DNA of 63,549 nt, counting the filler, from Craspedostauros australis (taxonomy: Eukaryota), in the NCBI GenBank assembly GCA_030167865.1. It is 8 parts of 8 records of this genome, joined end to end, with 100 filler letters (N's around TTAATTAATTAA, not from the genome) between each part and the next. Parts side by side here need not be neighbours in the genome. Positions count along the whole stretch, not along the records: positions 6,609 to 17,881 come from JALAGF010003667.1; 7 more parts are not named here. The stretch is one strand, 5' to 3'. Numbering within the stretch: position 1 is the first letter of the stretch; every line of letters starts with the position of its first letter. Of this stretch, positions 1,319-26,480 are shown in pieces. A model generated the notes under the pieces. The model ran no database searches. It was given only the letters and a program-made list of their open reading frames with translations, and was not told the DNA's origin. The translations under genes were made by a program, and so were the position numbers.

Positions 1319-2805
1319 GGTGTTTGCTGAATTCGCTTGAGTAGAGTATAGTTTGCTGCGCCGCTGTTGATGTCGCTGCTGATGATGCTGCTGATGTTGC
1401 CGCTGCTGCTGTTGATGGTTCTGATGAAAGCCAATCAAACCAGATCGAAATGAAGCAATGTGACGGTCGGGCCTGGCGGGAAAGTCCAAATGTGTGAGAG
1501 CCAAGTTCCGCTTGTTATGAATGTTCTTGCCGATGCTTCCTCTCGTGGGTGCTTCGTTTGGAATGGAACACTCTGCCGTGCTTGCTGTGACGACCGATCT
1601 CTTGGGAACAAGGAGAGACAGAGGCGCAGGTCTGGATGCCTCAGTTCGTCCTTCTTCTTCGTTGCTCTTTCTTTCTTTTCTTTCTTCTTTTTGCTTCACT
1701 CCACTTCCTTGCGTGTGATGCAACAGGCAGGCTTATCCGCTGCTCGATGGTTGTCTCTGGAGGTGTTGTGTTTGGGTCTTGCTATGCAGTGTATGATAGT
1801 ATCGTCTGGTGCAGCTGTACCCCTTGTCGAGCAGAGTGTTGGTGGCCAAGTGGAGTATTCTCGCATCCGTGTCTCCGATTGTTGCACTTGCGCCGGTGCT
1901 TGCCTCTGCCTTTGGCTTTGCGTTCTTGGGTCCGAGTATCGCCGAGCGGGGTACGACTACTTGTGTGTGTTTCACCGGTGATGATGTGGGTGGTTCCCGA
2001 AACATTTCATCTCGGTTCATCGCCCGCTCTTCGATTTTGGGGAAACGTCAAGGAGTTCACCCGACTTCGCATCCGTGTCAAACAACGCAGGCCAACCAAA
2101 CCAACCCAATTGCCTTCCATCCTGTTCCCTCAGAGAACGAGCTGACGCAACGCGAACAACAAAGAAAGGGATTGAAGGTATCGAGTTTCCACGGTCGATG
2201 GCAAGACGCTATGTCAATACGACTAAATCGACCACAATCAAACGGGATTGAGTCTACCCTATTCGTGCCACAACAAAACGCAATTCCGAACGTCGCACAA
2301 ACGCTGCGTTGGCGCAAAAGCAGAACAAAAACAAATTCCGTGTCAGAACTGAGACGAATGAGCGTCGGCAGATACCAAATTCCGATGATGGCAACAGGAG
2401 CGCGGACACATCAAGAGGAAGCCTCGTGAACTTCTCACGGACGCAGCCACACAGACTTCTTCTTGGCTCTCTTCAACCAAACGTGCACAGGAATTGTATC
2501 CTTGATGATGGGAGACAAAGTACGGAGAATGATCGACAGAGCCTCATGGGCAGAACAGCGCAACTACCGCAGTGAATGATGTGATCTCACAGAGTACTGG
2601 CACGAATGCGAGTGGCATCATGCACATCAGACTCAAAAACGACCTGGAGAGCCATTAATTGGAACAGATCCACCACGCTCCTCTCTTCTCCAGCATTCGC
2701 AGTATTTCTCTTGCTCCATCCATACTCTATCCATACTCTATCCATACTCTCATCACTCTACCAATACCAATACCAATTCTCTTGTCTGCGAAGAGCACGT
2801 TCACC

Positions 2806-4713: not shown

Positions 4714-5767
4714 CTGCCACGGAAAGCAAATCGTCGGCTCCTGCTCGTACTTGCAATGCAACATTGGAGGAAGAGGAGACTTGGATGTTGGCTAGATTAC
4801 CATACAACACAATCACATGTGCCCCATCATTATGTAACATATTCCGCTCTCTCTCTCTCTCCAGACGTATGCGATAGTCTCATGACGACGTATCAAGACT
4901 CTGCTATTCCTCGCATCTCCAATGCGTTGACTGTTGTTGCTCCTCGGCTCTACACTCTATCTCCCCTTGTATTGCATGATCCATACGACCTCAACGTCAA
5001 CATTCATGATTTCACAAACAGACGGATGGTGTAAGTATGCACGTTGAAAACTACAACATCTGTGTCAAACAGACAACCGTATTATTGGCCTATCAGACAT
5101 GTCGCAGAGCGACATAACACGGATCCAGAATCAGCCTGGCAATAAATCATCAACTGTGACTCGGCTCTACTCCCACCTCACAATTCGTTGCTCTCGCGGC
5201 GCCACTAACAGTGACCAACGCTGATCCAAAGGCGAAGAAAATGCATGCAGGAAGAGATGACTTTCTGCTCCTCACGTTTCATAAACTCCGACGTTGCTGC
5301 ACGCCATAAATCTCCCAATAAATCTCAAGGCCATGAAACGATGACGCAGCATGGCAAAGCGGTGCAAGTCGAATGCAACAACACCAATGAAAGCAACAGG
5401 TGCCAAGGGATCAATCAAAGACCACGACCACGCAATGCAGTTCAAATCGAACGAGCAACGCCTCTCATCGTTGTCGAGACAATCTTCTCTCTTGGACAAA
5501 TGCACGAACAAACAACGGGATTGATGAAACATGCACAACAACAATGACAACATCAACATCGACATCGACATCGACAAAACCACAACACCAACGACCACAG
5601 TCAACGCACCTTGGGCATTTCCTCATTTGGGAAGCTCATAAAAACAGAGAGCAAGCAAACAAACAATCACATCGACACACAACCGCACACGAAACACACA
5701 AACACTCCAACACACACGCAACTCAAAGCCACCAGCAGCAGCAACAACAACAACAATAATAGGAAAC

Positions 5768-6319
5768 ATGGCCTTCATCAAACCAATCCAAGTTGCCGCC
5801 ACCGTCATCCGCAAGGTGCAGAACTCACAGGGCAACATGGTCGCAACCACCGGCACTGCCAAGACCTCCTCGGCAGTCACCGTGACGAAGGCTATCCCCG
5901 ATGTCATCCAGAAGATCACGGAGATGAAGATCCCCACCGTCGCCATGGGAGTGCTGCTGCTGGGTGTCGCGGCGTTCGGCGTTCACATGGTGGTCGGCGA
6001 TATCAAGACGGTTATCATATCGGTCCAGACGGCCATCACCAAGATAATAGAGAAGGCGACGAACGGAGGGACTGAGGCTGTCGTCAAGGTCGAGGAGAAA
6101 TTCTGGGATCTGATGTACGCGAAGAGCAAGGAGCTGCTGGATTACGTGGCGAAGTCGGTCTTCGGAATGAAGATGACGGATCTGGCGCAGTACATGGGCG
6201 GTCGATTCGATTCCGTCACGAAATGGTTCGTCTACATGAACAAGTTCGTCGAGATCGTGAGCAGGTTCTTTTCGAAAACCAAAGCAGGTCAGGCCGCGGT
6301 TCCTGCGAAGAGCAAATGA
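5768..6319 (+). CDS. Hypothetical 183-aa protein with one hydrophobic segment
   Basis: ATG follows a CAA-rich leader; strong G/C-ending codon bias; hydrophobic stretch IPTVAMGVLLLGVAAFGVHMVVG. No family recognised. Confidence 0.7.
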   Translation: MAFIKPIQVAATVIRKVQNSQGNMVATTGTAKTSSAVTVTKAIPDVIQKITEMKIPTVAMGVLLLGVAAFGVHMVVGDIKTVIISVQTAITKIIEKATNGGTEAVVKVEEKFWDLMYAKSKELLDYVAKSVFGMKMTDLAQYMGGRFDSVTKWFVYMNKFVEIVSRFFSKTKAGQAAVPAKSK

Positions 6320-6508
6320 TCACACCTCGGAGCAACGCAACGCAGCGCAAAGAACCTACCTCAGAGCACGCGATCAAACAAACCATAGAGTCCCATAAAA
6401 TGACAGAATAATGTACTATGTAATTTTATGACCCGCTGCAGCCAAAACGTTACGCTCAAGTCGGAAGCGCATCACGGATCGGGTATCTAGCCACATCAGC
6501 CTCTTCCT

Positions 6509-6608
6509 NNNNNNNNNNNNNNNNNNNNNNNNNNNNNNNNNNNNNNNNNNNNTTAATTAATTAANNNNNNNNNNNNNNNNNNNNNNNNNNNNNNNNNNNN
6601 NNNNNNNN
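6509..6608. other. Artificial contig spacer N44-TTAATTAATTAA-N44 (also 17882-17981, 23400-23499, 26541-26640, 45257-45356, 59799-59898, 62175-62274)
   Basis: Identical 100-nt linker with stops in all six frames, seen 7 times. Plain N gaps at 23121-23181 and 61918-62005. Confidence 0.98.
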
Positions 6609-7926
6609 TTGCGATCCATGTCTCTGGAAAAGGTTTCGAGCTGGTGTCTCATTTGTGATATGTCATTCTTCATGGATTGCACAGAGGTTGCACCTTCTGG
6701 GCTGCATGCCGGTGCTGCCGTCCCCGTTGTTATGGAAGTGAGGCTGGAAGCTTGAGGATTCACCATCGTAGAGGCCCCGGTTGATGAGAGGCTCTTGACT
6801 GGTCCGGGTGCGGGTCCTGATGCTGCAGCTGCTTGCCCAAATAGCGGAAACGAAGACGTTGGCGATGATAATGGCGATGATGCTGATGATGAACCCCTGG
6901 TGGTGCGTTTGATCTTACCAAGGAGTTCAGGGCGATGGCGTTGGAAGAATTCATGGGCGAAAGATACGGATGTTGTTCCTGATGACCTCGTCGATCTGCG
7001 TTTTCTCGTGTTCGATGGCGATGATTGCTGCTGCTGCTGCTGAGTATTACCTGTCTGCGCATGCGTGCCCGCATTCGTCTCGATAGTCTCTGTAATGTTG
7101 CGAAGTTTGCGGAAGGAGTAGAAGTTGAGCTGTCTGACGAACGATGTGAATTTGGAATGCTTGAAGTATTTGGGCAGGATTGTCTGAGGGCATGAGACAA
7201 GGTGGATGGAATGGCACAATTGGCGATGAAGGCGGTTTGTGTCGTATCCGTGAGTAGCGTGTCAAATAGAGTTGAGTTGAGTAGAATTGAGTTGGGGTGA
7301 GAATGGCACGAGTCACGGCGGGGATTTCCATGCACGGAGTAGATTGGAGGGGCGGGGCAGAGAATGAAAGAACATGAGCGTGCTTGCTCGTCTGCCTCTA
7401 TGCTCGTCTGCATAAAGATGGGTGCGATCACGCTGAGCGGAACCTCCATTGTGTCTTTGCTCTCAACCACTCTCATCAGCCACATCGTTCCCGTGTTCCA
7501 TCGTCATCCCGCTTGTACAGCGCAAACCCGTCATGGCCGACAACAGCGCAGCATGTAGCGCACCCAAATGCGAGGGCAAATGGAAGACAAGCAGACTCAC
7601 CTTGCTGAATTCTTCAATGTTGTGAATGGTGAAGTACACGCCATCTGCCGACCAGGAAGCTATTTCTGGATCTGCCTGGTCGATCATGTGGAAGGTTTCT
7701 GTTGGTAGCGGTACGAGCGAAATGCGTGTAGGACGGTGGGAGTGTGAGAGACATGTACCATGCGTCAAGCGCGGGATGATCATGACATGGTTTTCAATCA
7801 CACCAGTACCAATCGGAACGTTGGCGTGCAACACATTTTGGACGCGGCATGGTGGATGGAGCATGGCGGAAGGTCGCACTTACTGGACAGGAACTTGTTG
7901 AGCAACCCCGTTCTATTCCGACTCAT
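6609..7926 (-). CDS. HSF family transcription factor, second assembled copy, 3'-truncated at contig start
   Basis: Matches 1-1318; exons 7926-7884, 7698-7601 and 7183-6609. Confidence 0.93.
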
Positions 7927-9413
7927 GGTGTTTGCTGAATTCGCTTGAGTAGAGTATAGTTTGCTGCGCCGCTGTTGATGTCGCTGCTGATGATGCTGCT
8001 GATGTTGCCGCTGCTGCTGTTGATGGTTCTGATGAAAGCCAATCAAACCAGATCGAAATGAAGCAATGTGACGGTCGGGCCTGGCGGGAAAGTCCAAATG
8101 TGTGAGAGCCAAGTTCCGCTTGTTATGAATGTTCTTGCCGATGCTTCCTCTCGTGGGTGCTTCGTTTGGAATGGAACACTCTGCCGTGCTTGCTGTGACG
8201 ACCGATCTCTTGGGAACAAGGAGAGACAGAGGCGCAGGTCTGGATGCCTCAGTTCGTCCTTCTTCTTCGTTGCTCTTTCTTTCTTTTCTTTCTTCTTTTT
8301 GCTTCACTCCACTTCCTTGCGTGTGATGCAACAGGCAGGCTTATCCGCTGCTCGATGGTTGTCTCTGGAGGTGTTGTGTTTGGGTCTTGCTATGCAGTGT
8401 ATGATAGTATCGTCTGGTGCAGCTGTACCCCTTGTCGAGCAGAGTGTTGGTGGCCAAGTGGAGTATTCTCGCATCCGTGTCTCCGATTGTTGCACTTGCG
8501 CCGGTGCTTGCCTCTGCCTTTGGCTTTGCGTTCTTGGGTCCGAGTATCGCCGAGCGGGGTACGACTACTTGTGTGTGTTTCACCGGTGATGATGTGGGTG
8601 GTTCCCGAAACATTTCATCTCGGTTCATCGCCCGCTCTTCGATTTTGGGGAAACGTCAAGGAGTTCACCCGACTTCGCATCCGTGTCAAACAACGCAGGC
8701 CAACCAAACCAACCCAATTGCCTTCCATCCTGTTCCCTCAGAGAACGAGCTGACGCAACGCGAACAACAAAGAAAGGGATTGAAGGTATCGAGTTTCCAC
8801 GGTCGATGGCAAGACGCTATGTCAATACGACTAAATCGACCACAATCAAACGGGATTGAGTCTACCCTATTCGTGCCACAACAAAACGCAATTCCGAACG
8901 TCGCACAAACGCTGCGTTGGCGCAAAAGCAGAACAAAAACAAATTCCGTGTCAGAACTGAGACGAATGAGCGTCGGCAGATACCAAATTCCGATGATGGC
9001 AACAGGAGCGCGGACACATCAAGAGGAAGCCTCGTGAACTTCTCACGGACGCAGCCACACAGACTTCTTCTTGGCTCTCTTCAACCAAACGTGCACAGGA
9101 ATTGTATCCTTGATGATGGGAGACAAAGTACGGAGAATGATCGACAGAGCCTCATGGGCAGAACAGCGCAACTACCGCAGTGAATGATGTGATCTCACAG
9201 AGTACTGGCACGAATGCGAGTGGCATCATGCACATCAGACTCAAAAACGACCTGGAGAGCCATTAATTGGAACAGATCCACCACGCTCCTCTCTTCTCCA
9301 GCATTCGCAGTATTTCTCTTGCTCCATCCATACTCTATCCATACTCTATCCATACTCTCATCACTCTACCAATACCAATACCAATTCTCTTGTCTGCGAA
9401 GAGCACGTTCACC

Positions 9414-11321
9414 ATGACGACATCCGAGGAATCCAGCCAGACTTCGTCAACGACGTTATCACGCATCGCACCGTTGGCATTCGTCCTCATGAATTCGTTG
9501 GCAGCGGGCGGAGTCGAGTACGGCTTCGGACTCTTCGCCAACGACATCAGGTTGCTCCACCATCTCTCGCAGGATCAGATCAACACCATCAGCTCGGTCA
9601 CTTTTTGTTCTGGCATCTTCAGCTGGGTGCCAGGACTCGTGCTCGATTACTTCGGCATCCGATTTGCGTTCCTGGTCGCCGCAACCATGTGCCTCGTTTC
9701 GGGCCTTCAATTCTGGTCCATCGCGAGGGCACCGTACGATCCCGATGACGACAAGAACTTCCTCATCGCCCAGCTTTCCGTGCTCGGCATGATCCTCTTC
9801 ATGGGTGCCACCATGACGTCAGGATGCGGGTTCAAGACGGTGGCCCTGCTCAGCGATCCAAAGCAGGAGGGCAGCATCATCGGCATTGCGAAAGGCTACA
9901 CTGGCATCGGTGCCGGAGCCTACACCTGCATCTTCGAAGCGTTGCGGCGGCACAGGAACAGCGGCGTCATCCTTGGCGGCGCGACGGCGTTGACGGTGCT
10001 GGATGAATCCAACTTGGGCTACCTGCTGGTTGCGGGTGTCGGGACCGCCCTCCTCACATTTCCGGCTCTGTGGTTCATCCCGTCCCATCGGGTCATGGAG
10101 GGACCGATGAAGATCGTTGGGACCTTCACTTCCGCTCACACCAACGTCATGTACGCTGGTCTCGTTCTGCTGGCTGCAGGCGTCCTCGTGACGAGCTCGC
10201 GCTTTGTCGACGACAGCAATGGCGACAATCACGCTGATGTGGATGCCGGTGACATCACAGTGTCACCCACTCTGAATGATGAATTCCTGAACAACTACGG
10301 ATACTACGTCGCAGCGGCCATCGTTATTCTGTGGGTCGCACCGGCTTCCATCGTCGCGACGTGCATGGCAGAGCCGGCAGCGTCTTCTGAACATAATAAT
10401 AATAATAATGGCGGCAGCATCATGAACGACGTCGAAGACTCGATCGCAAGCGACATGGAGAAGCAGCGGCAGCCATCGTCAGAACGTACCGCGCTGCTCA
10501 AACAGGCGTCTACTGCGATCACCGAGCTGGCAGAAAGCTTCTACGGAGACGAGCACGACGATGGCAACATCACCACGATCAGCTCCGACAAGAAGTCAGA
10601 CCTCAGTCTCTTTCAAGCATTGCAAACGCCGGAACTGTGGCTCATGTTCCACTGCACCGTCATCGTGGTGGGCAGCGGGACCGTCATTACCAACAACGTC
10701 AGCGCCATCGTCGAATCTCGCATGCTGCCCAGCAACATGACATCCGTCGCCACATCCGTCTTCAGCGTCGCCCAATCCGCATCGCGTGTCATCGCAGGGC
10801 TGCTGACGGAAGTGGCGGCGAAGAATCACGCCAAGAACAAGAAGGTCGCCAGCGGTTCTCTTGATTGGTTCGGATGGCATTCCCGACCGTCCTTCTTGTC
10901 GTTGGCAGCATTCATCGGAGCGCTGGCGCATGGCATCCTTGCTATTCCCGGCCTTGGATCCGGCGGCTTCATCGTCGGCGTTGCCCTGTCCGGCATCGCG
11001 TTCGGCACTGTGTGGCCCGTGATGGTGTTGGTCGTTGGTGACGTCTTTGGCAAAGCCAACCTGGGTGCCATCTACCTTTGGTTCGATGGTTCCACGCTGG
11101 CCTTCGGCTCGTTGTTCTTGTCCAAGCTCCTTTCGCAGTACGTCTACGAGCAACACAGGTTGTACCCCAACCTCGACGCGATGGGCGACGCCGACACCTC
11201 GTCGTGTTTCGGTGATGGATGCTTTCAACTGACGCACATCATCATCACATTGCTGTGCTTGGCGGCCACCGTGTCACCCATTGAACTTTCGAGACGGACC
11301 CACAATCGTTCCATTCGCTGA
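9414..11321 (+). CDS. MFS nodulin-like transporter, second assembled copy
   Basis: Translation identical to 2806-4713. Confidence 0.85.
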   Translation: MTTSEESSQTSSTTLSRIAPLAFVLMNSLAAGGVEYGFGLFANDIRLLHHLSQDQINTISSVTFCSGIFSWVPGLVLDYFGIRFAFLVAATMCLVSGLQFWSIARAPYDPDDDKNFLIAQLSVLGMILFMGATMTSGCGFKTVALLSDPKQEGSIIGIAKGYTGIGAGAYTCIFEALRRHRNSGVILGGATALTVLDESNLGYLLVAGVGTALLTFPALWFIPSHRVMEGPMKIVGTFTSAHTNVMYAGLVLLAAGVLVTSSRFVDDSNGDNHADVDAGDITVSPTLNDEFLNNYGYYVAAAIVILWVAPASIVATCMAEPAASSEHNNNNNGGSIMNDVEDSIASDMEKQRQPSSERTALLKQASTAITELAESFYGDEHDDGNITTISSDKKSDLSLFQALQTPELWLMFHCTVIVVGSGTVITNNVSAIVESRMLPSNMTSVATSVFSVAQSASRVIAGLLTEVAAKNHAKNKKVASGSLDWFGWHSRPSFLSLAAFIGALAHGILAIPGLGSGGFIVGVALSGIAFGTVWPVMVLVVGDVFGKANLGAIYLWFDGSTLAFGSLFLSKLLSQYVYEQHRLYPNLDAMGDADTSSCFGDGCFQLTHIIITLLCLAATVSPIELSRRTHNRSIR

Positions 11322-12375
11322 CTGCCACGGAAAGCAAATCGTCGGCTCCTGCTCGTACTTGCAATGCAACATTGGAGGAAGAGGAGACTTGGATGTTGGC
11401 TAGATTACCATACAACACAATCACATGTGCCCCATCATTATGTAACATATTCCGCTCTCTCTCTCTCTCCAGACGTATGCGATAGTCTCATGACGACGTA
11501 TCAAGACTCTGCTATTCCTCGCATCTCCAATGCGTTGACTGTTGTTGCTCCTCGGCTCTACACTCTATCTCCCCTTGTATTGCATGATCCATACGACCTC
11601 AACGTCAACATTCATGATTTCACAAACAGACGGATGGTGTAAGTATGCACGTTGAAAACTACAACATCTGTGTCAAACAGACAACCGTATTATTGGCCTA
11701 TCAGACATGTCGCAGAGCGACATAACACGGATCCAGAATCAGCCTGGCAATAAATCATCAACTGTGACTCGGCTCTACTCCCACCTCACAATTCGTTGCT
11801 CTCGCGGCGCCACTAACAGTGACCAACGCTGATCCAAAGGCGAAGAAAATGCATGCAGGAAGAGATGACTTTCTGCTCCTCACGTTTCATAAACTCCGAC
11901 GTTGCTGCACGCCATAAATCTCCCAATAAATCTCAAGGCCATGAAACGATGACGCAGCATGGCAAAGCGGTGCAAGTCGAATGCAACAACACCAATGAAA
12001 GCAACAGGTGCCAAGGGATCAATCAAAGACCACGACCACGCAATGCAGTTCAAATCGAACGAGCAACGCCTCTCATCGTTGTCGAGACAATCTTCTCTCT
12101 TGGACAAATGCACGAACAAACAACGGGATTGATGAAACATGCACAACAACAATGACAACATCAACATCGACATCGACATCGACAAAACCACAACACCAAC
12201 GACCACAGTCAACGCACCTTGGGCATTTCCTCATTTGGGAAGCTCATAAAAACAGAGAGCAAGCAAACAAACAATCACATCGACACACAACCGCACACGA
12301 AACACACAAACACTCCAACACACACGCAACTCAAAGCCACCAGCAGCAGCAACAACAACAACAATAATAGGAAAC

Positions 12376-12927
12376 ATGGCCTTCATCAAACCAATCCAAG
12401 TTGCCGCCACCGTCATCCGCAAGGTGCAGAACTCACAGGGCAACATGGTCGCAACCACCGGCACTGCCAAGACCTCCTCGGCAGTCACCGTGACGAAGGC
12501 TATCCCCGATGTCATCCAGAAGATCACGGAGATGAAGATCCCCACCGTCGCCATGGGAGTGCTGCTGCTGGGTGTCGCGGCGTTCGGCGTTCACATGGTG
12601 GTCGGCGATATCAAGACGGTTATCATATCGGTCCAGACGGCCATCACCAAGATAATAGAGAAGGCGACGAACGGAGGGACTGAGGCTGTCGTCAAGGTCG
12701 AGGAGAAATTCTGGGATCTGATGTACGCGAAGAGCAAGGAGCTGCTGGATTACGTGGCGAAGTCGGTCTTCGGAATGAAGATGACGGATCTGGCGCAGTA
12801 CATGGGCGGTCGATTCGATTCCGTCACGAAATGGTTCGTCTACATGAACAAGTTCGTCGAGGTCGTGAGCAGGTTCTTTTCGAAAACCAAAGCGGGTCAG
12901 GCCGCGGTTCCTGCGAAGAGCAAATGA
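12376..12927 (+). CDS. Hypothetical 183-aa protein, second copy (one I>V change)
   Basis: Same as 5768-6319 except VEIVS vs VEVVS and one silent change. Confidence 0.7.
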   Translation: MAFIKPIQVAATVIRKVQNSQGNMVATTGTAKTSSAVTVTKAIPDVIQKITEMKIPTVAMGVLLLGVAAFGVHMVVGDIKTVIISVQTAITKIIEKATNGGTEAVVKVEEKFWDLMYAKSKELLDYVAKSVFGMKMTDLAQYMGGRFDSVTKWFVYMNKFVEVVSRFFSKTKAGQAAVPAKSK

Positions 12928-13702
12928 TCACACCTCGGAGCAACGCAACGCAGCGAAAGAACCTACCTCAGAGCAGGCGATCAAACAAACCATAGAGTCC
13001 CATAAAATGACAGAATAATGTACTATATAATTCTATACAGCAATAGCACTCATCAGTAATACCAATTGGCTTTGTTCCATGTACCACCAGTCTTCTGCCA
13101 CTCCCAAGGGCATTGTTTGTGGCCCCTACTATGATGACAGGAACGTGCGCGGCGGTCGCTGCCGACCTAGCAGCAACCACCGCCCTTTGTACATGCAGAT
13201 GTTCTGGCCCTTGCTATCAACCAACACTTGCAGAACGCCTCTTTGTATCGGATCCTGCGCCTTGTGTTGATGTGAGGTTGTAGATACAGACGTAGATACA
13301 GTTGCAGACCTAGATGATGAATGAATGGAGCACCTCATGATTCATCGTACAGGAACGGGGAGTTCCTTCTGTCCAACAGGAATCTCCGCGATCTTTTGTG
13401 AAATGAGACAATCATGAGATTGACCCGTTCGATCAAATTGGAGACGACATTTTTGGGCTCAACTGATCCAGAAGACAGTTCTGGATTCATCGACCATGGC
13501 GAAGCCAAAAGAACGGCCAACATCACCACCGTATCCTTCGCTTTCGCTTGTTGATTGGTGGTTGTGTCTGCGGTGATGGGACGCAATCAATGGATCACCC
13601 AAGAGCAGATCCACCACTATCGCACAATACAAGCGTGTACCTACTCTATCCACGCCAACACGACACCCCCTGAAGTACCAGAGACAAGAAACGGCGACGA
13701 CA

Positions 13703-15078
13703 ATGTCCAGCAACGACGACTACATCACAACGCACATCCCGCGGGATGTAATCGAGCGTTTGGAAGCCGGAGCATTCCGAAGCGTGTGCGCGCATCTGAG
13801 GGAACGCAGCGATGAAGTGCAGAACATCGACATGATGACCCTCACGGGATTCTGCCGCAATTGCTTGGCGAAGGTGAGCGTCTCGAGGTCTTTGCTTTGT
13901 GGTTTCATCAGCTGTGAAACAGTGCAGGTGGAGAAGGATGCATGGCCACATGATTTCGCATGCTCGAAGTAAGCCTTTCTCACCTCAAATACTCTCATGA
14001 TGCAATCAATTTCGATGAACTTCGGGCATTCCCTGTGTCTGCTTGTTGCGCTGGCCATCAGTGGATGGTCTTGGAGGCACGAAAGATTGCGGCGGAGGCA
14101 AAGACTACGGACGGCATCACCAGCGGCAGCAGCAGCAACCATGATGCTAAAACCATCGCTCTCCTCAATGGCTTGGGATACGATGAGGCTGCGAAGTACG
14201 TGTACGGCATGCACTACAAGGACTGGAAGGCAAGGCATTCGAAGAAAGCGTCTGACGATCAAATGGACCGGTTCAATGCGAGCAAACCATTGTGGGCAAA
14301 GCATGACAAGAAATTGCTGGAGAAAAAGTTGACTGCAACTGAGAGCGACGCTCAACAGCAGCAACAGCCGTCCAACGAATCCAAGGCGCCGGCAGGAACA
14401 ATGCCAGCAACAACCAAATCGCTGCAATCCAACGTTTGCTGCCAAGATGTTCCGGACGCTCCAGCGCCAGCGCCAACATCAGCCCCACCACAAAAGAAGA
14501 AATTCCGTGAGCTGCCGCCGTATCAACCACCGGCGCCACCAGCGACTGAGATCAAGATCTCACTCGGTATCCTCATAGTCAGCGATCGTGCATCCAAGGG
14601 CGAGTACGAAACGGGCGATTTGTCGGGCCCGGCCGTTGAGGATGCGGTCACATCATGCATCGAGGGTCTTCGTAAGGACTCGCCAAATGTTCAGCTGACC
14701 AACGTTCAAAAGAAAATCGTTCCAGATGACAAGTCCGCCATTCAAGGTGCCATCGAACAGTGGGCCAACGAGGATGGTGATGCCGGCGGTGTCAACGTGA
14801 TCCTCACATCTGGTGGCACCGGATTTGCGCTGCGGGATATCACGCCGGAAGCCACGAAAGAAATGCTGCGTCACGAGTGCGCTGGATTGATGTCCTTCTG
14901 CACTGCCGAAACCTCAAAGATCCAGCCTTTGGCTGCCTTGTCGCGGGGCACGAGCGGAATCCTGAACAACAACCGCACCTTCATCGCCAACCTTCCTGGC
15001 AACCCCAAGGGTGTGCATGAGATCGTGCCGTACCTCTTGCCGCTCAGCTTGCATGTTCTTGCCGATATTCAGGCATGA
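13703..15078 (+). CDS. DUF1244-domain / molybdopterin adenylyltransferase (MogA/Cnx1G-type) fusion, 2 exons
   Basis: Exon 1 13703-13873 (AAG|GTGAGC), exon 2 14062-15078 (CAG|TGG), phase 0. N-terminal LEAGAFRSVCAHLRERSDEVQNIDMMTLTGFCRNCLAKW...VYGMHYKDWKARH matches DUF1244. C-terminal IVSDRASKG, IVPDD, TSGGTGFALRDITPEAT, LSRG and ANLPGNPKGV match MogA/G-domain motifs. Confidence 0.88.
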
Positions 15079-15983
15079 CACATGCGATGGAACGAGCCAT
15101 GGAGAGCGGGTGCTTCGAATCTGGGTAAATATGGATATTCAAATTGCAAGATTGTTAGACGTACGTGCTCATCCTTTCATGGATGGCGTGTGAGATCATG
15201 CGAGCATAGAGTGGCACGCAAAATGCTTGATGCGTGCCCATTCATATATTAGTACAAATGGAATGAATTCAACATGATGGAATCATGAGCCACTTGCACA
15301 GGTCGTCAGGAATGTTAATCGTATGCGCAATAATGGAACATCATGCAACGACAGATCTCATCAACAACAGCGCATCACACACACACACATTTCAGACCCC
15401 CTTCGCGCGCCTTGAACAATGGCCAATCGGCCAGGCCCCCCTCGTGCATGCCGCTTCTTGTTGCTCCTTCCTGTCGGGAGATACATATTCGGACGTCGTG
15501 TAACCGCCCATCTCATCTGCGGATTCGTGCCGTCGCCCTTCTACACGAGGCTCTGTTCGTATCTTGGCTCCCAGCATGGAGTCTGCGCCTCCGTGGATTC
15601 CTCCGCCTATTTCTTTGGGTGTGTCTGTGAGGGAAAGTGCAGGATGTCGGGATGGCAAGTGTGTGGGTTTCATTTCATTTCATGTCATTTTTGTATTGTT
15701 TTGGTTTTTCTTTTTTTGGTGTGTAATGCCATTCATTTAATTTTTCTTTGTTTCTTGTGGGTGATTGCGAACGGTGGAGGGATGATCGTGCAACGAAAAC
15801 GATCATTCGACGCCATGCCGCTGAATCACTCCATCTCTTTGTTCTTTTCTTTTCTGTTTGTTTTTGCATTTCTTTGCTTCTTCATTTTCAACAACACACT
15901 TGACATGATTTTGTTTCGTCCAGTTGGATTCATTTCATATTGAGCTTTCTCGCTCGCTTGGTCGGTCCAGCTGAAGCTGAACC

Positions 15984-17870
15984 TCAGGCATCGGCGGCGG
16001 GTGGTGCATCACCGCCGCCACCGCCGTCTGCTGCGGCAGATTCTTCTGGCTTCTTGCGCACCCATGTTTTGGAAGCCATCATGTTGACGACTTCGGCACG
16101 GCCAGGGAATCCCCTGCCTCTGCCACGACCGCGACCACGGCCTCTGTAACCACGTCCGCGGTAAGAGTATCCGGAGAAGCCTGTGGAGTATCCAGCCTGG
16201 ACGATTGGGGATGGATGAGCAGCCGAAGCGTCCCCGGATCCGTCCCCGCCTTGGGCGTTGTTGCCGCCACCGCTTTCGGCAGGCTTCTGCTCGCCTTGGT
16301 GATCTTGGCCCTCGCCCTGATGATGATGCTCGGCGTGATCGCCACGGCCTCTGCCGCCTCGTCCACCGCGTCCTCTGCCACGACCTCTGCCCCCGCGGCC
16401 TCCGCGTCTGCCGCCACCACCCTCGTGGTATCCGTAGCCGCCTCTGCCGCCTCTTCCACCACCACGACCACCGTATCCGTATCCCGGATCGTCGTAACCG
16501 TCGTAGTCGTTGTACTCGTCGTAGCCCTGTGAGTAATCGTTGTACTCGTGGTAGTCGTCGCCTCCGTGTCGGTAACCACCCCTGCCTCGGCCTCGGCCTC
16601 TGCCGCCTCTTCCGCCACGGCCTCTGCCTCGTCCACCGCCCTCGTGGTACCCGTCATCTCGTCGGGCCATCTTGGGACCACGCCCGCCTCCGCGGCCTGC
16701 TGGGACGTAGTCTGGCTCACGTTCGAAATCGTCACGCGATCGGCGGTTGCCGGACTCGCCGCGAGCACGTCGTGGACCACGACCTCGCCGGTCATCCCAT
16801 CGTTCCGCATCACGGCCACGAGGTTGGCGTCGGTCCCGTCTGCCGTGATCATCGTTGGCGAGACGATCGAATGCTTCCGACTGCCGTGAGCGACCTCTGC
16901 GGTCATCGCCACGGCGGTTGCCATCACGTTGGCGGTCATCGCGTTGACGGTCATCACGTTGGCGACGGTCCGACCTTCTGTCGCCATCGCGGTCACGGTT
17001 GCGTCCGCCACGACCGGCCTTGCCATCATCCCTGTTGCCGTCTTTGTCCTTGTCCTTGTCTTTGGACTTCTTGGGGCCCTTGGTTTTGTCGTCCTTCTTC
17101 GGTTTGTTCCCCTTGCCACCTTGGCGTGGAGCCTCCAATGCACCTGCCATGAGCAGCGCGTTCTTCGAAGCGGCAGCAGACTGCATCATCATGAGAGAGA
17201 ATGGATGGTGAGCACATGGGTATGGCAAGTTGGTGAATGCGAACAGCGTTTGCACATGGTGACAATTGATGGATGATGGTTGATGGATGGGTTAGTGGTT
17301 GGATCCGTCAGAGCAGTATTGCAGAGCCAAAGGCCAACCGCATGAGCACACACATACATGCATATATACATGCATATATACATGCATTCATGGATCAAGA
17401 CGGTGCAAACAAACACAGCGCGATGGAACGGCACACAATGAACATACCTTGTCATCCCCCTCGCTTTCAGCAGGTGCAGCATCGCCGTCGCCATTGGCAT
17501 CATGAACGTCGCCGCCGCCGGCCGCCTCGTTGTCCTTGTCGATCAAGTTCTGCAGGAGATTGGTGAGCTGCTCCCCGATCTTGTTGGCCAGCGGCTCCTT
17601 GCAGAAGTCCATCTCCATCCCAACGAGCTCCTTGACGATGTAGTTGACGGACTTGGAATTGGAGACCATGGCGAATGCGTAATCCAGAAAGTCGGAGAAA
17701 TCCTCCGTGCTGTTTCCCCCTGCGTCCGAAGACGCATGGAAGAAGGGGAGCAAGGCGATCTTGAGCTCGCGCGTCTCATCCGCAGTCAGCTTGCGCGGCA
17801 GCACGACGGAATCGTCGTTGGGGTCGTCCTCCTCCGGCGCCGCATCGGCATGTGCGGCTTCTTCCGACAT
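15984..17870 (-). CDS. Putative RNA-binding protein: N-terminal PWI-like helical domain plus long RD-rich and RGG/YGG low-complexity region, 2 exons
   Basis: Exon 1 17870-17448 (AAG|GTATGT), exon 2 17180-15984 (CAG|TCT), phase 0, about 539 aa. DFLDYAFAMVSNSKSVNYIVKEL resembles PWI-like domains; many RGRG/RGG repeats. Confidence 0.72.
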
Positions 17871-18283
17871 GGCTCTTCGTGNNNNNNNNNNNNNNNNNNN
17901 NNNNNNNNNNNNNNNNNNNNNNNNNTTAATTAATTAANNNNNNNNNNNNNNNNNNNNNNNNNNNNNNNNNNNNNNNNNNNNCTCGATTCGGTGGGCTGCT
18001 CGAACACCTACACAACGAATACCTCATGGGGTATGACAGCTACCCTGCAAACATGCCAACAGCGCTGACCTTACTCAACCACTGGTCCCACGACCCACGC
18101 AACGTAGCAGGCGCACACACACCGCGTCACACGGGCATGGCATTCGCGCAACAGAACGCAACTGACACCAAATGCGAGCGGTGCGGTCGCACCAACCACA
18201 CCACGGATGAGTGCTATGCTAAATTCCACGAGAATGGCACGGTGCTTGTCAACACCACCGGATGGCACGCCCACGACAGCAAC

Positions 18284-18316
18284 GACTACGACTACGACTA
18301 CGACTACGACTACGAC
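18284..18316 (+). repeat. (GACTAC)5.5 microsatellite encoding a DY repeat between the gag knuckle and the protease
   Basis: Read directly; mirrored in contig 4. Confidence 0.9.
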
Positions 18317-21300
18317 AACAACGAATTTGTATTCATGCAGGTCGATCATCACACACATGGGGATCTCGCCTTCAGCCAACCGTCGACACCCATTCCCAAC
18401 CGATGGGTTCTGTTGGACAACCAATCCACCGTCGACGTTTTCTCCAACCATCACCTTCTTCGCGACATTCACACCGTCAACAAAACACTCACCATCCACT
18501 GCAACGCGGGGACAGCCACCACCGATCAACAAGGCACGCTTCCTGGGTATGGACTTGTATGGTACCACCCCGAAGGAGTGGCCAATATTCTGTCTCTCAG
18601 CAAGGTGAAGTCCATGTTTCGCGTCACCTACGACAGCAACAACACCAACCAATTCGTCGTACACAAGCCAGACGGCACCACGCAGATCTTCCGCGAATCC
18701 AACAACGGACTGTACTACCTTGACACCGGAGCCATCCACAAAAACGTACTCATCAACACAGTAGCCGATAACAAGTCTAGATTCTCGTCTACCGACTAAT
18801 CTCGCGCTCAACTAGCTCGTTCAGTTCAGCAACGCATTGGTCGGCCTACCACTCGCAACTTCATTCGATATGTGCGCAACAACATGATACCAAACTGCCC
18901 GGTCACCACCAAGGACATCCGCAATGCAGAAATCATCTTCGGACCGGATGTCGGCGCGTTGAAAGGCAAAACCACACGCACAGCATCGCCAGTGGTCACA
19001 GCAAGTGTTACCAACTTGCCTGCATACATCATGAAGGAATACCAACAGGTGACTCTCTCTGCCGATATCATGAAAGTGAGCGGAATCCCATTCCTTGTTA
19101 CTGTCTCGCAGCACATCAAGTTCGGGACGGTGGCGAAATTGGACTCCGAATCGAACAAGGCGATCACCCACCAGTTCCACGAGGTGATGAAGCTGTACAA
19201 GCAGCGCGGGTTCAAAGTCAACATGGTGCTCACCGATAACCAGTTCGCTTCCATGCGAGGTGACCTGGCTGCCGATGGCATTGCAATCAACGTTACATCC
19301 CGAGACGAACACGTCCCCGCTATCGAAAGATACATCAGAACCATCAAGGAACGGACTCGCAGTACCTACAACGCCCTTCCTTTCCGCCACTATCCACCCG
19401 CACTCATCATCGAAATGGTGTACCACTCGGTGTACTGGAGCAACATGTTCCCGCACCAAGACGGCATCTCCAAACGAATGAGTCCATCGGAAATCGTGGT
19501 GGGACGCAAACTGGATTTCGCCAGTCACTGCCGCATCGAGTTTGGATTGTACGTCCAAACACATGAGCAGCACGACAACTCAATGGTACCTCGAACGGTG
19601 GGCGCACTCGCGCTACGACCATCCGGCAATGACCAAGGGGGATATCTGTTCTACAGTCTCAAGACCGGACGGCGACTACACCGACGCAGCTGGACCCCTC
19701 TGTCCATGCCAGACGACGTGATTGACCACGTCCACGCCACCGCTAAGCATTCGAGAGGCAAGAAGGACCTCACTTTTGCAGACGCCAACGACCAGGACAT
19801 CATCTCAATCATCAACGGTGACATCGATCACAGCGACTCCGAATACGATCCCGACGACGAATCCGAAGCTAGTGATGAATCACTTGATGCCAACGATGAT
19901 GCATCGGAATCAGAGAGCGAAGATAGCGATGACAGCGACAGCGATGACAGCGACAACGATCAGAGCACTGATGACAGTGATGACGACGACAGCTCCTATC
20001 ACCCTGAAGACGGCGACGAAACCACCGACAACGAGGACGCAGATCTTGACCTCGTCCCCGACATTGTGGTGGAAGGAGCCAGACAACACGAACCTGAAGC
20101 AGAAGCAGCGAATCCACCACCAGCACGAGCCAGACGCAAACCACGCATTGACTACCATCGGCTGCACCACGTGGGAAGAGATGAAGCACATGCATCCATG
20201 ACTCAAATCACATCGGAAAAATGTGAGGAGCCAACTGAATCACACAACGCGTGCGTTTTCCTGACTGAACAAATGAATTGGAAGCAAGGGTTGAAGCTGT
20301 TCCATGAGCGTGGTGAACTTGCCATTAGCAAGGAGCTACAACAGGTGCACGACATGGAAGGCTTTGAACCGAAGCATTGGCACCAACTGACAAAGGACGA
20401 AAGGGCCCAATCACTCCGGTATCTTATGTATCTCAAGGAGAAACGCACAGGCATCATCAAGGGACGTGGGTGCGCCGACGGACGCAAACAGCGCATGTAC
20501 ATGACAAAAGAAGAAACCAGCTCACCCACTGTTTCTTTGCTTGGTCTCATGCTCACTTGTACAATCGACGCCCACGAGAATCGTGATGTGGCAACTGTTG
20601 ACGTGCCCGGCGCTTTCTTGCAGACCAAGTTTGAGGAGGGGGACGTTGTGCATGTGCTCATTGAGGGCCGCATGGCGGAGCTACTCGCGAAAATCGCCCC
20701 AGACGTATACGAAGAATACGTCCGAAAGAAGCGGGGCCAATCGTCGATCTACGTGCAGCTAACCAAGGCTCTCTACGGCACTCTAAAGGCAGCCCTGCAG
20801 TGGTGGAAGGACCTAACGACTACTCTAGTCAACAACGGTTTCATCATCAACCCCTACGACTGGTGCGTCGCGAACAAAACCATCAACGGCAGTCAGTGTA
20901 CTGTTGTGTGGCATGTGGATGATCTCAAGATCTCACACAAAGATAGCACAGCCGTTGACTCCGTCATCGAGATGCTCAGCCAGGCGTATGGTCAACACAG
21001 CCCACTCACCATCAAACGAGGCAAAGTACACGACTACCTCGGTATGCGTCTTGACTACACCAACCCCAACGAGGTACAAATCGACATGGGGGAATATGTG
21101 GACGGTATTCTCGAAGGAGTGCCTGCCGACATGCACGGAAAGGCCACATCACCAGCTGCCGATCATCTCTTCGCTATCAACGACGACAATCCAACCAAAC
21201 TCAGCCAGGACACAGCCGACATGTTCCACCATATTGTCGCCAAGCTGTTGTTCCTCTGCAAGAGGGCACGACCAGACCTCCAAACAGCGGTCGCATTCCT

Positions 21301-21939
21301 GTGTACAAGAGTGAAGTCCCCAGACACAGACGACTACAAGAAGCTGGCGCGCGCAGTCAAGTTCCTCAGATCCACCCGAGACATGACGCTTACCCTGGGG
21401 GGATCATCCTTGCAGAATGTGCAATGGTGGGTGGACGGATCCTTCGGCGTACACGGAGACATGCGAAGCCACACAGGAGCCTACATGTCCGCCGGAAAGG
21501 GAACCATCTACGGGGTCTCATCCAAGCAAAAGCTCAACACAAAGAGTTCCACAGAGGCAGAACTCGTCGCCGTCGACGATGTCATGCCACAGGTGTTATG
21601 GACGCGATACTTCCTACAAGAACAGGGTGTTCACCCAGACCCCACCGTCATCCACCAAGACAACCAGAGCGCGATGCTGCTCGAAAACAATGGGAGAGGG
21701 TCCAGTGGAAAGAAAACGCGACACATTAACATGCGTTTCTTCTTTGTCAGTGACCGCGTCAACAAAGGGGAAATCACAATCCGGTACTGTCCCACCGATG
21801 ACATGATCGGTGACTTCTTTACCAAACCACTGCAGGGAGCCAAATTCAAGCGGTTCCGTGACATCATTCTCAACCGGAAGAGCAACGCCCCACGACCAGG
21901 GGTCTCATACAAACAAGCCCTGCTCGGTGCAAAGGAGTG

Positions 21940-22525
21940 TGTTGGTGCATCAGGCCAAATTGTGAGAGGCGAAGGCACGAAACCGCCAATGACCCGTGAC
22001 GTCACCCAACGGTGCGAAACAACAGCAGGCAGCCACCACCAGCACCATGCAAGCAAACCCAAGGAAAACAACAGAGACAGCAACAGCAACAGCAAAACAG
22101 ACATAAAACCAATTCAAAGTATCTGATTATACACACCCACACCAATCTCACTGTACAACATCTGGATTGACCTTCGGTTGATAGCCGGGTAGCATCCGGT
22201 GTTGAGCAGTTGCCTCAACAGGATCATCGATGTGCCCGTGACAACGAGGGACCTCCCGGGGCGAAAACGAGCTGCGACGACGGCGAAGCAAACCACGACC
22301 CTGGGCTGCACAGCCGCCAGTGCGCACCAACAGTTTCATTTCTGGCGGCACGCCCAATCTTCGCCCTCTGAGGGAAACACAAACAACGAACAGAGACACA
22401 AGCGGGAGAGAGAGGGCAGCGCTGGCAGTGAATTGCCCACAAATACTATTATTAGATATTATTAATATTATTCTAGTAAGAAGTGAATACAAGGATGGAT
22501 TCAGAAAGCAGCGACCTGTCGAACA
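21940..22525 (+). repeat. Putative 3' LTR (about 586 bp) preceded by a purine-rich tract
   Basis: AAAGGAGTG then TGTTGG at 21940; candidate end TCGAACA at 22525 gives TGTT..AACA termini. No second LTR in the window to confirm the boundaries. Confidence 0.65.
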
Positions 22526-23399: not shown

Positions 23400-23499
23400 N
23401 NNNNNNNNNNNNNNNNNNNNNNNNNNNNNNNNNNNNNNNNNNNTTAATTAATTAANNNNNNNNNNNNNNNNNNNNNNNNNNNNNNNNNNNNNNNNNNNN

Positions 23500-26480
23500 A
23501 GAGTGCCGTAGAGAGCCTTGGTTAGCTGCACGTAGATCGACGATTGGCCCCGCTTCTTTCGGACGTATTCTTCGTATACGTCTGGGGCGATTTTCGCGAG
23601 TAGCTCCGCCATGCGGCCCTCAATGAGCACATGCACAACGTCCCCCTCCTCAAACTTGGTCTGCAAGAAAGCGCCGGGCACGTCAACAGTTGCCACATCA
23701 CGATTCTCGTGGGCGTCGATTGTACAAGTGAGCATGAGACCAAGCAAAGAAACAGTGGGTGAGCTGGTTTCTTCTTTTGTCATGTACATGCGCTGTTTGC
23801 GTCCGTCGGCGCACCCACGTCCCTTGATGATGCCTGTGCGTTTCTCCTTGAGATACATAAGATACCGGAGTGATTGGGCCCTTTCGTCCTTTGTCAGTTG
23901 GTGCCAATGCTTCGGTTCAAAGCCTTCCATGTCGTGCACCTGTTGTAGCTCCTTGCTAATGGCAAGTTCACCACGCTCATGGAACAGCTTCAACCCTTGC
24001 TTCCAATTCATTTGTTCAGTCAGGAAAACGCACGCGTTGTGTGATTCAGTTGGCTCCTCACATTTTTCCGATGTGATTTGAGTCATGGATGCATGTGCTT
24101 CATCTCTTCCCACGTGGTGCAGCCGATGGTAGTCAATGCGTGGTTTGCGTCTGGCTCGTGCTGGTGGTGGATTCGCTGCTTCTGCTTCAGGTTCGTGTTG
24201 TCTGGCTCCTTCCACCACAATGTCGGGGACGAGGTCAAGATCTGCGTCCTCGTTGTCGGTGGTTTCGTCGCCGTCTTCAGGGTGATAGGAGCTGTCGTCG
24301 TCATCACTGTCATCAGTGCTCTGATCGTTGTCGCTGTCATCGCTGTCGCTGTCATCGCTATCTTCGCTCTCTGATTCCGATGCATCATCGTTGGCATCAA
24401 GTGATTCATCACTAGCTTCGGATTCGTCGTCGGGATCGTATTCGGAGTCGCTGTGATCGATGTCACCGTTGATGATTGAGATGATGTCCTGGTCGTTGGC
24501 GTCTGCAAAAGTGAGGTCCTTCTTGCCTCTCGAATGCTTAGCGGTGGCGTGGACGTGGTCAATCACGTCGTCTGGCATGGACAGAGGGGTCCAGCTGCGT
24601 CGGTGTAGTCGCCGTCCGGTCTTGAGACTGTAGAACAGATATCCCCCTTGGTCATTGCCGGATGGTCGTAGCGCGAGTGCGCCCACCGTTCGAGGTACCA
24701 TTGAGTTGTCGTGCTGCTCATGTGTTTGGACGTACAATCCAAACTCGATGCGGCAGTGACTGGCGAAATCCAGTTTGCGTCCCACCACGATTTCCGATGG
24801 ACTCATTCGTTTGGAGATGCCGTCTTGGTGCGGGAACATGTTGCTCCAGTACACCGAGTGGTACACCATTTCGATGATGAGTGCGGGTGGATAGTGGCGG
24901 AAAGGAAGGGCGTTGTAGGTACTGCGAGTCCGTTCCTTGATGGTTCTGATGTATCTTTCGATAGCGGGGACGTGTTCGTCTCGGGATGTAACGTTGATTG
25001 CAATGCCATCGGCAGCCAGGTCACCTCGCATGGAAGCGAACTGGTTATCGGTGAGCACCATGTTGACTTTGAACCCGCGCTGCTTGTACAGCTTCATCAC
25101 CTCGTGGAACTGGTGGGTGATCGCCTTGTTCGATTCGGAGTCCAATTTCGCCACCGTCCCGAACTTGATGTGCTGCGAGACAGTAACAAGGAATGGGATT
25201 CCGCTCACTTTCATGATATCGGCAGAGAGAGTCACCTGTTGGTATTCCTTCATGATGTATGCAGGCAAGTTGGTAACACTTGCTGTGACCACTGGCGATG
25301 CTGTGCGTGTGGTTTTGCCTTTCAACGCGCCGACATCCGGTCCGAAGATGATTTCTGCATTGCGGATGTCCTTGGTGGTGACCGGGCAGTTTGGTATCAT
25401 GTTGTTGCGCACATATCGAATGAAGTTGCGAGTGGTAGGCCGACCAATGCGTTGCTGAACTGAACGAGCTAGTTGAGCGCGAGATTAGTCGGTAGACGAG
25501 AATCTAGACTTGTTATCGGCTACTGTGTTGATGAGTACGTTTTTGTGGATGGCTCCGGTGTCAAGGTAGTACAGTCCGTTGTTGGATTCGCGGAAGATCT
25601 GCGTGGTGCCGTCTGGCTTGTGTACGACGAATTGGTTGGTGTTGTTGCTGTCGTAGGTGACGCGAAACATGGACTTCACCTTGCTGAGAGACAGAATATT
25701 GGCCACTCCTTCGGGGTGGTACCATACAAGTCCATACCCAGGAAGCGTGCCTTGTTGATCGGTGGTGGCTGTCCCCGCGTTGCAGTGGATGGTGAGTGTT
25801 TTGTTGACGGTGTGAATGTCGCGAAGAAGGTGATGGTTGGAGAAAACGTCGACGGTGGATTGGTTGTCCAACAGAACCCATCGGTTGGGAATGGGTGTCG
25901 ACGGTTGGCTGAAGGCGAGATCCCCATGTGTGTGATGATCGACCTGCATGAATACAAATTCGTTGTTGTCGTAGTCGTAGTCGTAGTCGTAGTCGTAGTC
26001 GTTGCTGTCGTGGGCGTGCCATCCGGTGGTGTTGACAAGCACCGTGCCATTCTCGTGGAATTTAGCATAGCACTCATCCGTGGTGTGGTTGGTGCGACCG
26101 CACCGCTCGCATTTGGTGTCAGTTGCGTTCTGTTGCGCGAATGCCATGCCCGTGTGACGCGGTGTGTGTGCGCCTGCTACGTTGCGTGGGTCGTGGGACC
26201 AGTGGTTGAGTAAGGTCAGCGCTGTTGGCATGTTTGCAGGGTAGCTGTCATACCCCATGAGGTATTCGTTGTGTAGGTGTTCGAGCAGCCCACCGAATCG
26301 AGCGATATCCGCGCCCAGGAGAAATGCGACTGCGTGGCATCGGTTGCGGGTCTCGTCTGCGAGGTCCGACTGCATGGCGGTGGCGACGTCTTCATCGTCT
26401 TCGAGGTCGAGTGCCCATTTGACCACCCCCGGGTTGTTGGTGATGCCTGTGTCGAGTGTTTGTTGGCAAGTTCCGCGCAC
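23500..26480 (-). mobile_element. Same copia element, reverse-complement contig (gag C-terminus to RT start)
   Basis: 23500-26302 mirrors 20784-17982 (coordinate sum 44284), including the TAA. It adds about 60 gag codons (AVAFLLGADIARFG). Confidence 0.95.

Follow-up and report, generated by a model that had tools for sequence, protein, structure and literature searches.

A diatom gene joining DUF1244 to a molybdenum insertase G domain, with DUF1244 as a probable third insertase module

The literature describes molybdenum insertases, which carry out the last steps of molybdenum cofactor (Moco) synthesis, as proteins of two modules, G and E. A gene of Craspedostauros australis raises the question of why a G domain should carry a DUF1244 domain at its N terminus, and what DUF1244 does there. 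The gene occupies positions 13703-15078 (plus strand) of the window, the whole stretch of 63,549 nucleotides that was analysed (GenBank assembly GCA_030167865.1). The window joins eight parts of eight records with filler between them; parts side by side need not be neighbours in the genome, and positions 6609-17881 come from JALAGF010003667.1. The analysis indicates that the gene in all likelihood encodes the G half of a molybdenum insertase and that DUF1244 is very probably a third insertase module, not a chance passenger, which travels with G, with E or with both. The tie of DUF1244 to molybdenum insertion is well supported, as the link to Moco synthesis proposed in a preliminary description of the locus gains from recurrent fusions, from fusions to the E domain in at least five domain orders and from co-occurrence with MoeA in bacteria.

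The gene model comprises two exons encoding a product of 395 amino acids. Exon 1 (13703-13873) has 57 codons; it starts with the ATG at 13703, encodes the N-terminal helix (LEAGAFR...) and ends with ...GCG AAG. The intron (13874-14061), 188 nucleotides long and in phase 0, opens with GT (13874-13875) and closes with AG (14060-14061). Exon 2 (14062-15078) starts in frame with TGG ATG GTC and contains 338 codons and the TGA at 15076-15078; all these features lie on the plus strand. In unspliced DNA the exon-1 frame runs into a stop at 13970-13972, inside the intron, and the exon-2 frame is open only from 13954. The DUF1244 core begins in exon 1, which encodes it as far as ...GFCRNCLAK, and the N terminus of the protein aligns with full-length homologs from Met1 onward. 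These homologs read through the proposed join as ...GFCRNCLAKW[ML]V[VL]EARK..., and the diatom proteins P0065, P0094 and P0018, derived from MMETSP transcriptomes, are continuous over the junction position. Short metagenome gene calls either begin at M[VI][IL]EARK or run as ...CLAKV... into an intron. They break at the same codon boundary, and the intron position is therefore common to the relatives.

A different gene model would make the DUF1244 piece and the G domain separate products, or leave the intron in place to give a truncated peptide. The sequencing record lends it something: no RNA reads over the junction 13873/14062 were found among the public sequencing runs for the locus, and the sole public contig that covers it (run X1, of guessed kind) spans 14038-15475, has no joint and begins inside the intron. 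Ten differences from the window, 14147 C>A and 14290 T>A among them, mark this contig as another strain or allele. Two other runs from that study share almost no words with the locus. However, the splice signals are canonical and in phase 0, the join restores the invariant motif exactly, a single open frame of exon 2 covers the rest of DUF1244 as well as the G domain, and the transcriptome-derived homologs are continuous. Split products or a retained intron are thus extremely improbable, and the two-exon model, supported by the comparison with homologs, is close to certain. The excision of 13874-14061 rebuilds the DUF1244 domain as the preliminary description had proposed, with Pfam matches on both exons.

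Residues 39-57 of the exon-1 product match positions 1-19 of the DUF1244 profile (38.6 bits, E 1.2e-9), and residues 38-72 of the exon-2 product match positions 32-66 (37.6 bits, E 2.5e-9); the Pfam gathering cut-off of this family (PF06844) is 27 bits. MoCF_biosynth (PF00994, cut-off 26.6 bits) was matched by exon-2 residues 170-327 with 60.7 bits (E 1.7e-16). Both families expected from the preliminary description are thus above their cut-offs, and the motifs that it listed (CxxC, SNVCCQDV, PDD, GGTG and RDITPEA) are all present in the translations. MoeA_N, MoeA_C or other MoeA families were absent from both exon products in the Pfam search at E up to 1. The CxxC motif of DUF1244 (C51-R-N-C54) is encoded at 13853-13864 in exon 1. 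The second part of DUF1244 (14062-14310) contains a loop insertion absent from bacterial proteins, continues with GYDEAAKYVYGMHYKDWK and closes with a ...FNASKPLWAKHDK tail, and is collinear with the bacterial protein. Exon 2 alone matches the DUF1244 structure 3fyb in the Protein Data Bank (PDB) at E 4e-4, and a profile of diatom DUF1244 domains matches 3fyb at E 1.2e-22 and 2o35 at E 1.2e-20.

A linker rich in Gln, Pro and Ala (14311-14547), predicted to be disordered in the homolog P0020, connects DUF1244 to the G domain and contains the motif S-N-V-C-C-Q-D-V (14428-14451), whose vicinal cysteines are residues 183-184 of 395. The MogA/Cnx1G-type G domain (14548-15075), assigned by Pfam and by alignment with the Cnx1 G domain, includes PDD at 14722-14730 and GGTG...RDITPEA at 14812-14853; all of these elements are on the plus strand. 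Among solved structures its closest match is 1o8q, the Cnx1 G domain (E 3.7e-24, exon-2 residues 163-337), with which the nucleotide- and pterin-site motifs PDE/PDD, TxGGTG, RD(V/I)TPEAT, LSR and NxPGNP align residue by residue. The motifs PDE/PDD, TxGGTG, RDVTPEAT, LSR and PGNP are presumably catalytic in G domains. Family membership and these conserved motifs suggest that the domain would adenylylate molybdopterin in a reaction dependent on Mg-ATP. In an AlphaFold2 model of P0020 (mean predicted local distance difference test score, pLDDT, 84.6; predicted template modelling score, pTM, 0.54) the two domains are predicted with confidence, but pLDDT is 33-46 in the linker (residues 149-185) and below 50 in residues 40-48, just before the CxxC motif.

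The fusion of DUF1244 to a G domain is widespread in protists, and the window gene is an ordinary member. A word-index search found both PF00994 and PF06844 in all 120 best homologs, among which the diatoms Cylindrotheca, Cyclotella, Skeletonema, Nitzschia, Thalassiosira, Amphora and Pseudo-nitzschia are named. The top identity among these matches is just 51-52%, and the protein of the window itself is therefore absent from that collection. HMMER, run exhaustively against 1.84 billion representatives, produced 3649 matches at E 0.001 or better. Domains were scanned in the first 133 of 150 listed representatives at 50% identity, the last 17 being left out for size: 84 carry both domains, 9 DUF1244 only and 40 MoCF_biosynth only, many of the latter two kinds being truncated gene models. 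Divergent members include the euglenid Eutreptiella gymnastica, Prasinoderma coloniale and the diplonemids Rhynchopus euleeides and Artemidia motanka, and DUF1244/MoCF clusters of the ESM Atlas contain Bacillariophyta and Chlorophyta. Uniqueness to this assembly, considered in the preliminary description, does not apply: the fusion is the usual form in diatoms. The architecture is labelled in public databases, and no paper describing it was found in the literature searched. When short DUF1244 proteins were sought in the word index, the matches were all pieces of the eukaryotic fusion gene. The pennate diatoms and the window protein have a single DUF1244, and the centric diatom proteins P0025, P0070, P0018 and P0023 (~520-550 amino acids) have two in tandem before G.

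The fusions of DUF1244 extend to the E domain. MoeA_N and MoeA_C are additionally present in three of the 133 scanned representatives, and a search with the E-containing part of one triple fusion found PF06844 in 13 of the 120 best matches. Pfam assignments showed the orders DUF-E (P0385, P0386, P0393 and P0401), DUF-E-G (P0388, P0391, P0392 and P0335), E-DUFx2-G (P0389 from Cymbomonas tetramitiformis, P0397 and P0248), E-DUFx2 (P0402), E-DUF-G (P0262) and DUF-G-DUF-E (P0273). The two DUF1244 copies of P0273 are identical, and this sequence may be an assembly chimera; DUF-E proteins exist independently of it. In hemistasiid diplonemid transcriptomes the DUF-G protein P0287 and the DUF-E protein P0386 derive from one Trinity gene, and the three hemistasiid products (P0273, P0287 and P0386) could reflect a tandem arrangement, alternative joining or chimeric assembly. 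P0287 ends with the beginning of another DUF1244. In a FastTree phylogeny of G domains (155 rows, truncated models unlabelled) the G domains of triple fusions adjoin DUF1244-fused G domains with low support.

These architectures bear on the main competing explanation, in which DUF1244 is solely an oligomerisation or scaffold module with structural cysteines. Its dimer would cross-link G trimers and DUF-bearing E dimers into an insertase complex, a non-covalent counterpart of the G-E fusion of plants, animals and fungi. The distribution of the domain agrees with such a role, as most lineages have DUF1244 on G whereas others have it on E, one Trinity gene yields both a DUF-G and a DUF-E product, and the remaining 107 of the 120 best E-domain matches, which lack PF06844, include gephyrins and other G-E fusions as well as oomycete proteins. 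Both solved DUF1244 entries (2o35 and 3fyb) hold two chains, and the accessible part of a SCOP review places the DUF1244 family among interlocked oligomers of non-compact subunits. However, DUF1244 persists in single chains that already unite E and G (E-DUF-G and DUF-E-G) and need no tether, and this retention argues against a pure tether. The invariance of the CxxC and linker cysteines over long evolutionary distances also looks like chemistry or metal binding and not just packing. A role confined to scaffolding is therefore doubtful.

The cysteines of the CxxC motif are invariant in 37 of 37 aligned eukaryotic fusions, from diatoms, a euglenid, diplonemids and others, and so is the first cysteine of the linker motif S-[DNS]-[VA]-C-C. 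The serine and the second cysteine of this motif are conserved in at least 90% of the 37, while the rest of the linker is variable. CxxC is also present in 80 of 80 bacterial DUF1244 proteins, whose loci were fetched by a pattern containing CxxC. In DUF-E-G proteins the linker motif has a form with one cysteine, HSDVCSEN, upstream of DUF1244, and in P0385 SVCC precedes the E domain. The motif thus goes with DUF1244 and not with G. The invariance of the cysteines fits the handling of a metal or of redox state that has been proposed for DUF1244.

The vicinal cysteines might instead point to a role of the N-terminal region in localisation or regulation, for example S-acylation of the C-C motif that would anchor G at a membrane near molybdate uptake. 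Their position within a disordered linker would suit this, and the linker of gephyrin is palmitoylated. Such a role is, nevertheless, very improbable, since bacterial homologs that lack the C-C motif keep the rest of DUF1244 with 40-45% identity, and the motif can be reduced to one cysteine and can stand upstream of DUF1244.

In bacteria DUF1244 is a separate protein. A pattern scan of one genome per species yielded 580 confirmed DUF1244 loci, the best 80 of which, all from alpha- and gammaproteobacteria, were used for alignment and neighbourhood analysis. In these 80 loci the protein is free-standing and of ~100 amino acids, and the eukaryotic domain is collinear with the whole of it at 35-45% identity apart from the eukaryotic loop insertion. 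The blocks EA(G/A)AFR, VQNID(L/M)M, GFCRNCLAKW and YGMxYxxWK are common to the window DUF1244 and the SMc04008-like proteins of known structure (PDB 2o35 and 3fyb). In contrast to the latter, the eukaryotic form has a loop insertion after ...EARK, an intron, an enzyme fusion and the S-x-V-C-C motif, which bacteria lack. Very long stop-to-stop frames surround a few bacterial DUF1244 matches (for example 1049 amino acids in G273, 1037 in G327, 556 in G098 and 544 in G183); these are fusions in bacteria or else frames that stay open by chance in GC-rich DNA. The accessible part of a preprint predicts for a DUF1244-containing protein of M. adhaerens a -1 ribosomal frameshift at codon 80 that would add a new domain (bioRxiv 10.1101/2025.10.02.679949).

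The preliminary description had suggested a comparison of bacterial DUF1244 genes with Moco genes, by neighbourhood and by co-occurrence; the two gave different answers, the link appearing in co-occurrence across genomes and only rarely in gene neighbourhood at the 80 loci. Genome tallies, uncorrected for phylogeny, showed MoeA in 255 of 256 DUF1244-positive alpha- and gammaproteobacterial genomes, compared with 410 of 601 overall. Among 301 alphaproteobacterial species genomes, DUF1244 is present in 172 and MoeA_N in 209; MoeA_N occurs in 172 of 172 DUF1244-positive genomes, and DUF1244 in 0 of 92 MoeA-negative ones (Fisher 2e-47, phylogeny-uncorrected). Among DUF1244-positive alphaproteobacterial genomes of at most 1.6 Mb, 13 of 13 are MoeA-positive. 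Of the control genomes, only that of Caulobacter vibrioides gave a DUF1244 match. The control gene was GapR, which is similarly small and often adjoins DUF1244; it shows no link to MoeA, being carried by 74 of the 92 genomes without MoeA and by 156 of the 209 with it. In 300 gammaproteobacterial genomes (DUF1244 in 84, MoeA_N in 201), 83 of the 84 DUF1244-positive genomes carry MoeA_N (Fisher 1.4e-16, likewise uncorrected); the exception, G554, has MoaC and a much fragmented assembly. The tallies include genomes flagged as unpublished (G212 and G037 in alpha-, G583, G428, G573 and G350 in gammaproteobacteria), without which MoeA accompanies DUF1244 in 171 of 171 alpha- and 79 of 80 gammaproteobacterial genomes.

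A tie of DUF1244 to E. coli-type MogA was considered and rejected. This protein (NF006932) is rare, with matches at E 1e-30 or better in 20 of the 301 alphaproteobacterial genomes and 10 above the cut-off, and 8 of the 20 MogA-matching genomes are DUF1244-positive. In a sample of 46 alphaproteobacterial genomes, 22 were known to carry DUF1244, and 21 of these also have a MoaB-like protein, 49-68% identical to the one in G001.

Neighbouring genes of the 80 loci were assessed by heuristic open reading frame (ORF) calls, with 577 flanking ORFs clustered and 41 chosen ORFs run against Pfam. The recurrent neighbours are FGase-family proteins (18 of the 80 loci), pyruvate kinase (16), GapR (15), Peptidase_M15_2 (11) and DUF1036 (10), with YciB, YCII and BolA recurring in gammaproteobacteria. 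In tblastn searches of the 80 loci with one MoeA, one MoaB-like protein and the G domain of the window, the latter two queries found no G-domain gene near DUF1244. The only tight pair seen is at 1163-2844 (minus strand) of locus L110 (G042:C10) in the alphaproteobacterium G042, where DUF1244 starts directly at, or overlapping with, the stop of a moeA paralog.

Several observations weigh against the assignment of DUF1244 to molybdenum insertion as a third module. No moa, moe or mog family is among the recurrent neighbours of the 80 bacterial loci, and MoeA lies within 10 kb in only 4 of the 80 by tblastn, all from one Lysobacterales-like gammaproteobacterial group. The co-occurrence tests carry no correction for phylogeny, and 155 of the 410 MoeA-positive genomes are without DUF1244, which is therefore not essential for Moco. 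The G domain of the window protein falls below the NCBIfam equivalog cut-offs for bacterial MogA (NF006932, 88.9 bits vs. 158) and MoaB; the MogA model was built for the bacterial protein, and the window protein is therefore assigned to the wider G-domain family only. The model of P0020 shows no docking of DUF1244 on the G domain and places the C-C motif in the low-confidence linker, and no functional test of DUF1244 was found in the accessible parts of the literature searched. The absence of RNA reads over the junction and the retention of DUF1244 in chains that already join E and G, described above, belong to the same side.

The bacterial results raise the further possibility that DUF1244 serves a purpose outside Moco synthesis, for instance in general thiol redox or regulation, and that both its fusions and its co-occurrence with MoeA reflect shared ancestry and ecology. 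The uncorrected tests, the MoeA-positive genomes without DUF1244 and the recurrent neighbours, which lie outside Moco synthesis (FGase-family proteins, pyruvate kinase, GapR, YciB, YCII and BolA), all speak for it. However, in the eukaryotic sets examined DUF1244 stands with insertase domains in at least five orders, which is hard to obtain by chance, and the one-sided profile recurs in two classes and in genomes of 1.2-1.6 Mb, whereas the GapR control shows nothing similar. A function outside Moco synthesis is accordingly improbable.

As a probable third insertase module, DUF1244 occurs on G, on E or on both in protists, and in alpha- and gammaproteobacteria as a free protein almost exclusively alongside MoeA. 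At the dithiolene of molybdopterin, or of its adenylylated form (MPT-AMP), the invariant CxxC motif may act by metal binding or thiol exchange, and in eukaryotes the nearby C-C motif might assist it. This chemistry would be placed at the hand-over between the G and E activities, and the DUF1244 dimer could keep G and E assemblies in contact in lineages that lack a direct fusion of the two. The favoured mechanism would thus combine a cysteine-based role at the dithiolene or a bound metal with scaffolding by the dimer. A bolder version, offered tentatively and less probable than not, holds that molybdenum insertion has a missing third component and that DUF1244 fills this place. As a small, dimeric protein with CxxC, conserved from proteobacteria to algae, it would prepare or protect the molybdopterin dithiolene and physically couple G with E. 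Such a component might remove a placeholder metal or keep the dithiolene thiols reduced, and it could have become dispensable and been lost in plants, animals, fungi and bacteria such as E. coli.

Comparison with known systems places the window protein near, and apart from, the classical insertases. It has PF00994 in common with the Arabidopsis Cnx1 G domain (PDB 1o8q, 1uux and 1eav) and bacterial MogA and MoaB, and differs from them by the N-terminal DUF1244, the cysteine-bearing linker and the lack of an E domain on the chain. The two-domain insertases (plant Cnx1, E-G; gephyrin and the fungal proteins, G-E) resemble it in joining G to an oligomerising module through a flexible linker and share the last Moco steps, but their second module is MoeA instead of DUF1244. 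Related protist proteins hold all three modules. An alga with unfused G and E is already described, since Chlamydomonas has CNX1G and CNX1E on separate genes according to the accessible passages of a 2026 molybdenum insertase phylogeny (PMC13262936). In the same passages the G domains of Micromonas, Diacronema and Chrysochromulina are reported to carry an unnamed N-terminal extension of ~150 residues. A full-text search did not find the term 'DUF1244' in the main text of that paper, 9 of its 21 supplementary files lying outside the search. As far as these passages go, the three algal G domains resemble the window protein in being stand-alone with an extension of the right size, and one DUF1244/MoCF cluster of the Atlas is mostly Chlorophyta; the algal extension is likely to be DUF1244. 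Diatoms are not mentioned in the accessible passages of a 2024 study (PMC11489736).

The surroundings of the gene contain repeated sequence. Positions 1-6369 and 6609-12977 are near-identical copies (99.7% identity, no indels) with a period of 6608 in window coordinates, read as a tandem duplication that reaches the left edge of the window and stops ~725 bp before the gene begins. A segmental duplication of recent date or an artefact of the assembly could explain it. The duplicated unit contains an ORF for a Nodulin-like major facilitator superfamily protein (2659-4713 and 9267-11321), and an ORF with a heat shock factor (HSF)-type DNA-binding domain (6557-7261, minus strand) was also assigned to the duplication. 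Downstream of the gene in window coordinates, the ORFs at 17930-22126 (plus strand) and 23448-25484 (minus strand), with a gag-type zinc knuckle and an RVT_2 reverse transcriptase, are copies of copia-type retrotransposons.

The fusions and the nearly complete restriction of bacterial DUF1244 to genomes with MoeA together give this domain a concrete, testable assignment. Nitrate assimilation in diatoms depends on Moco. For these organisms, the finding of DUF1244 on the G domain would bear on nitrate assimilation through the synthesis of that cofactor.

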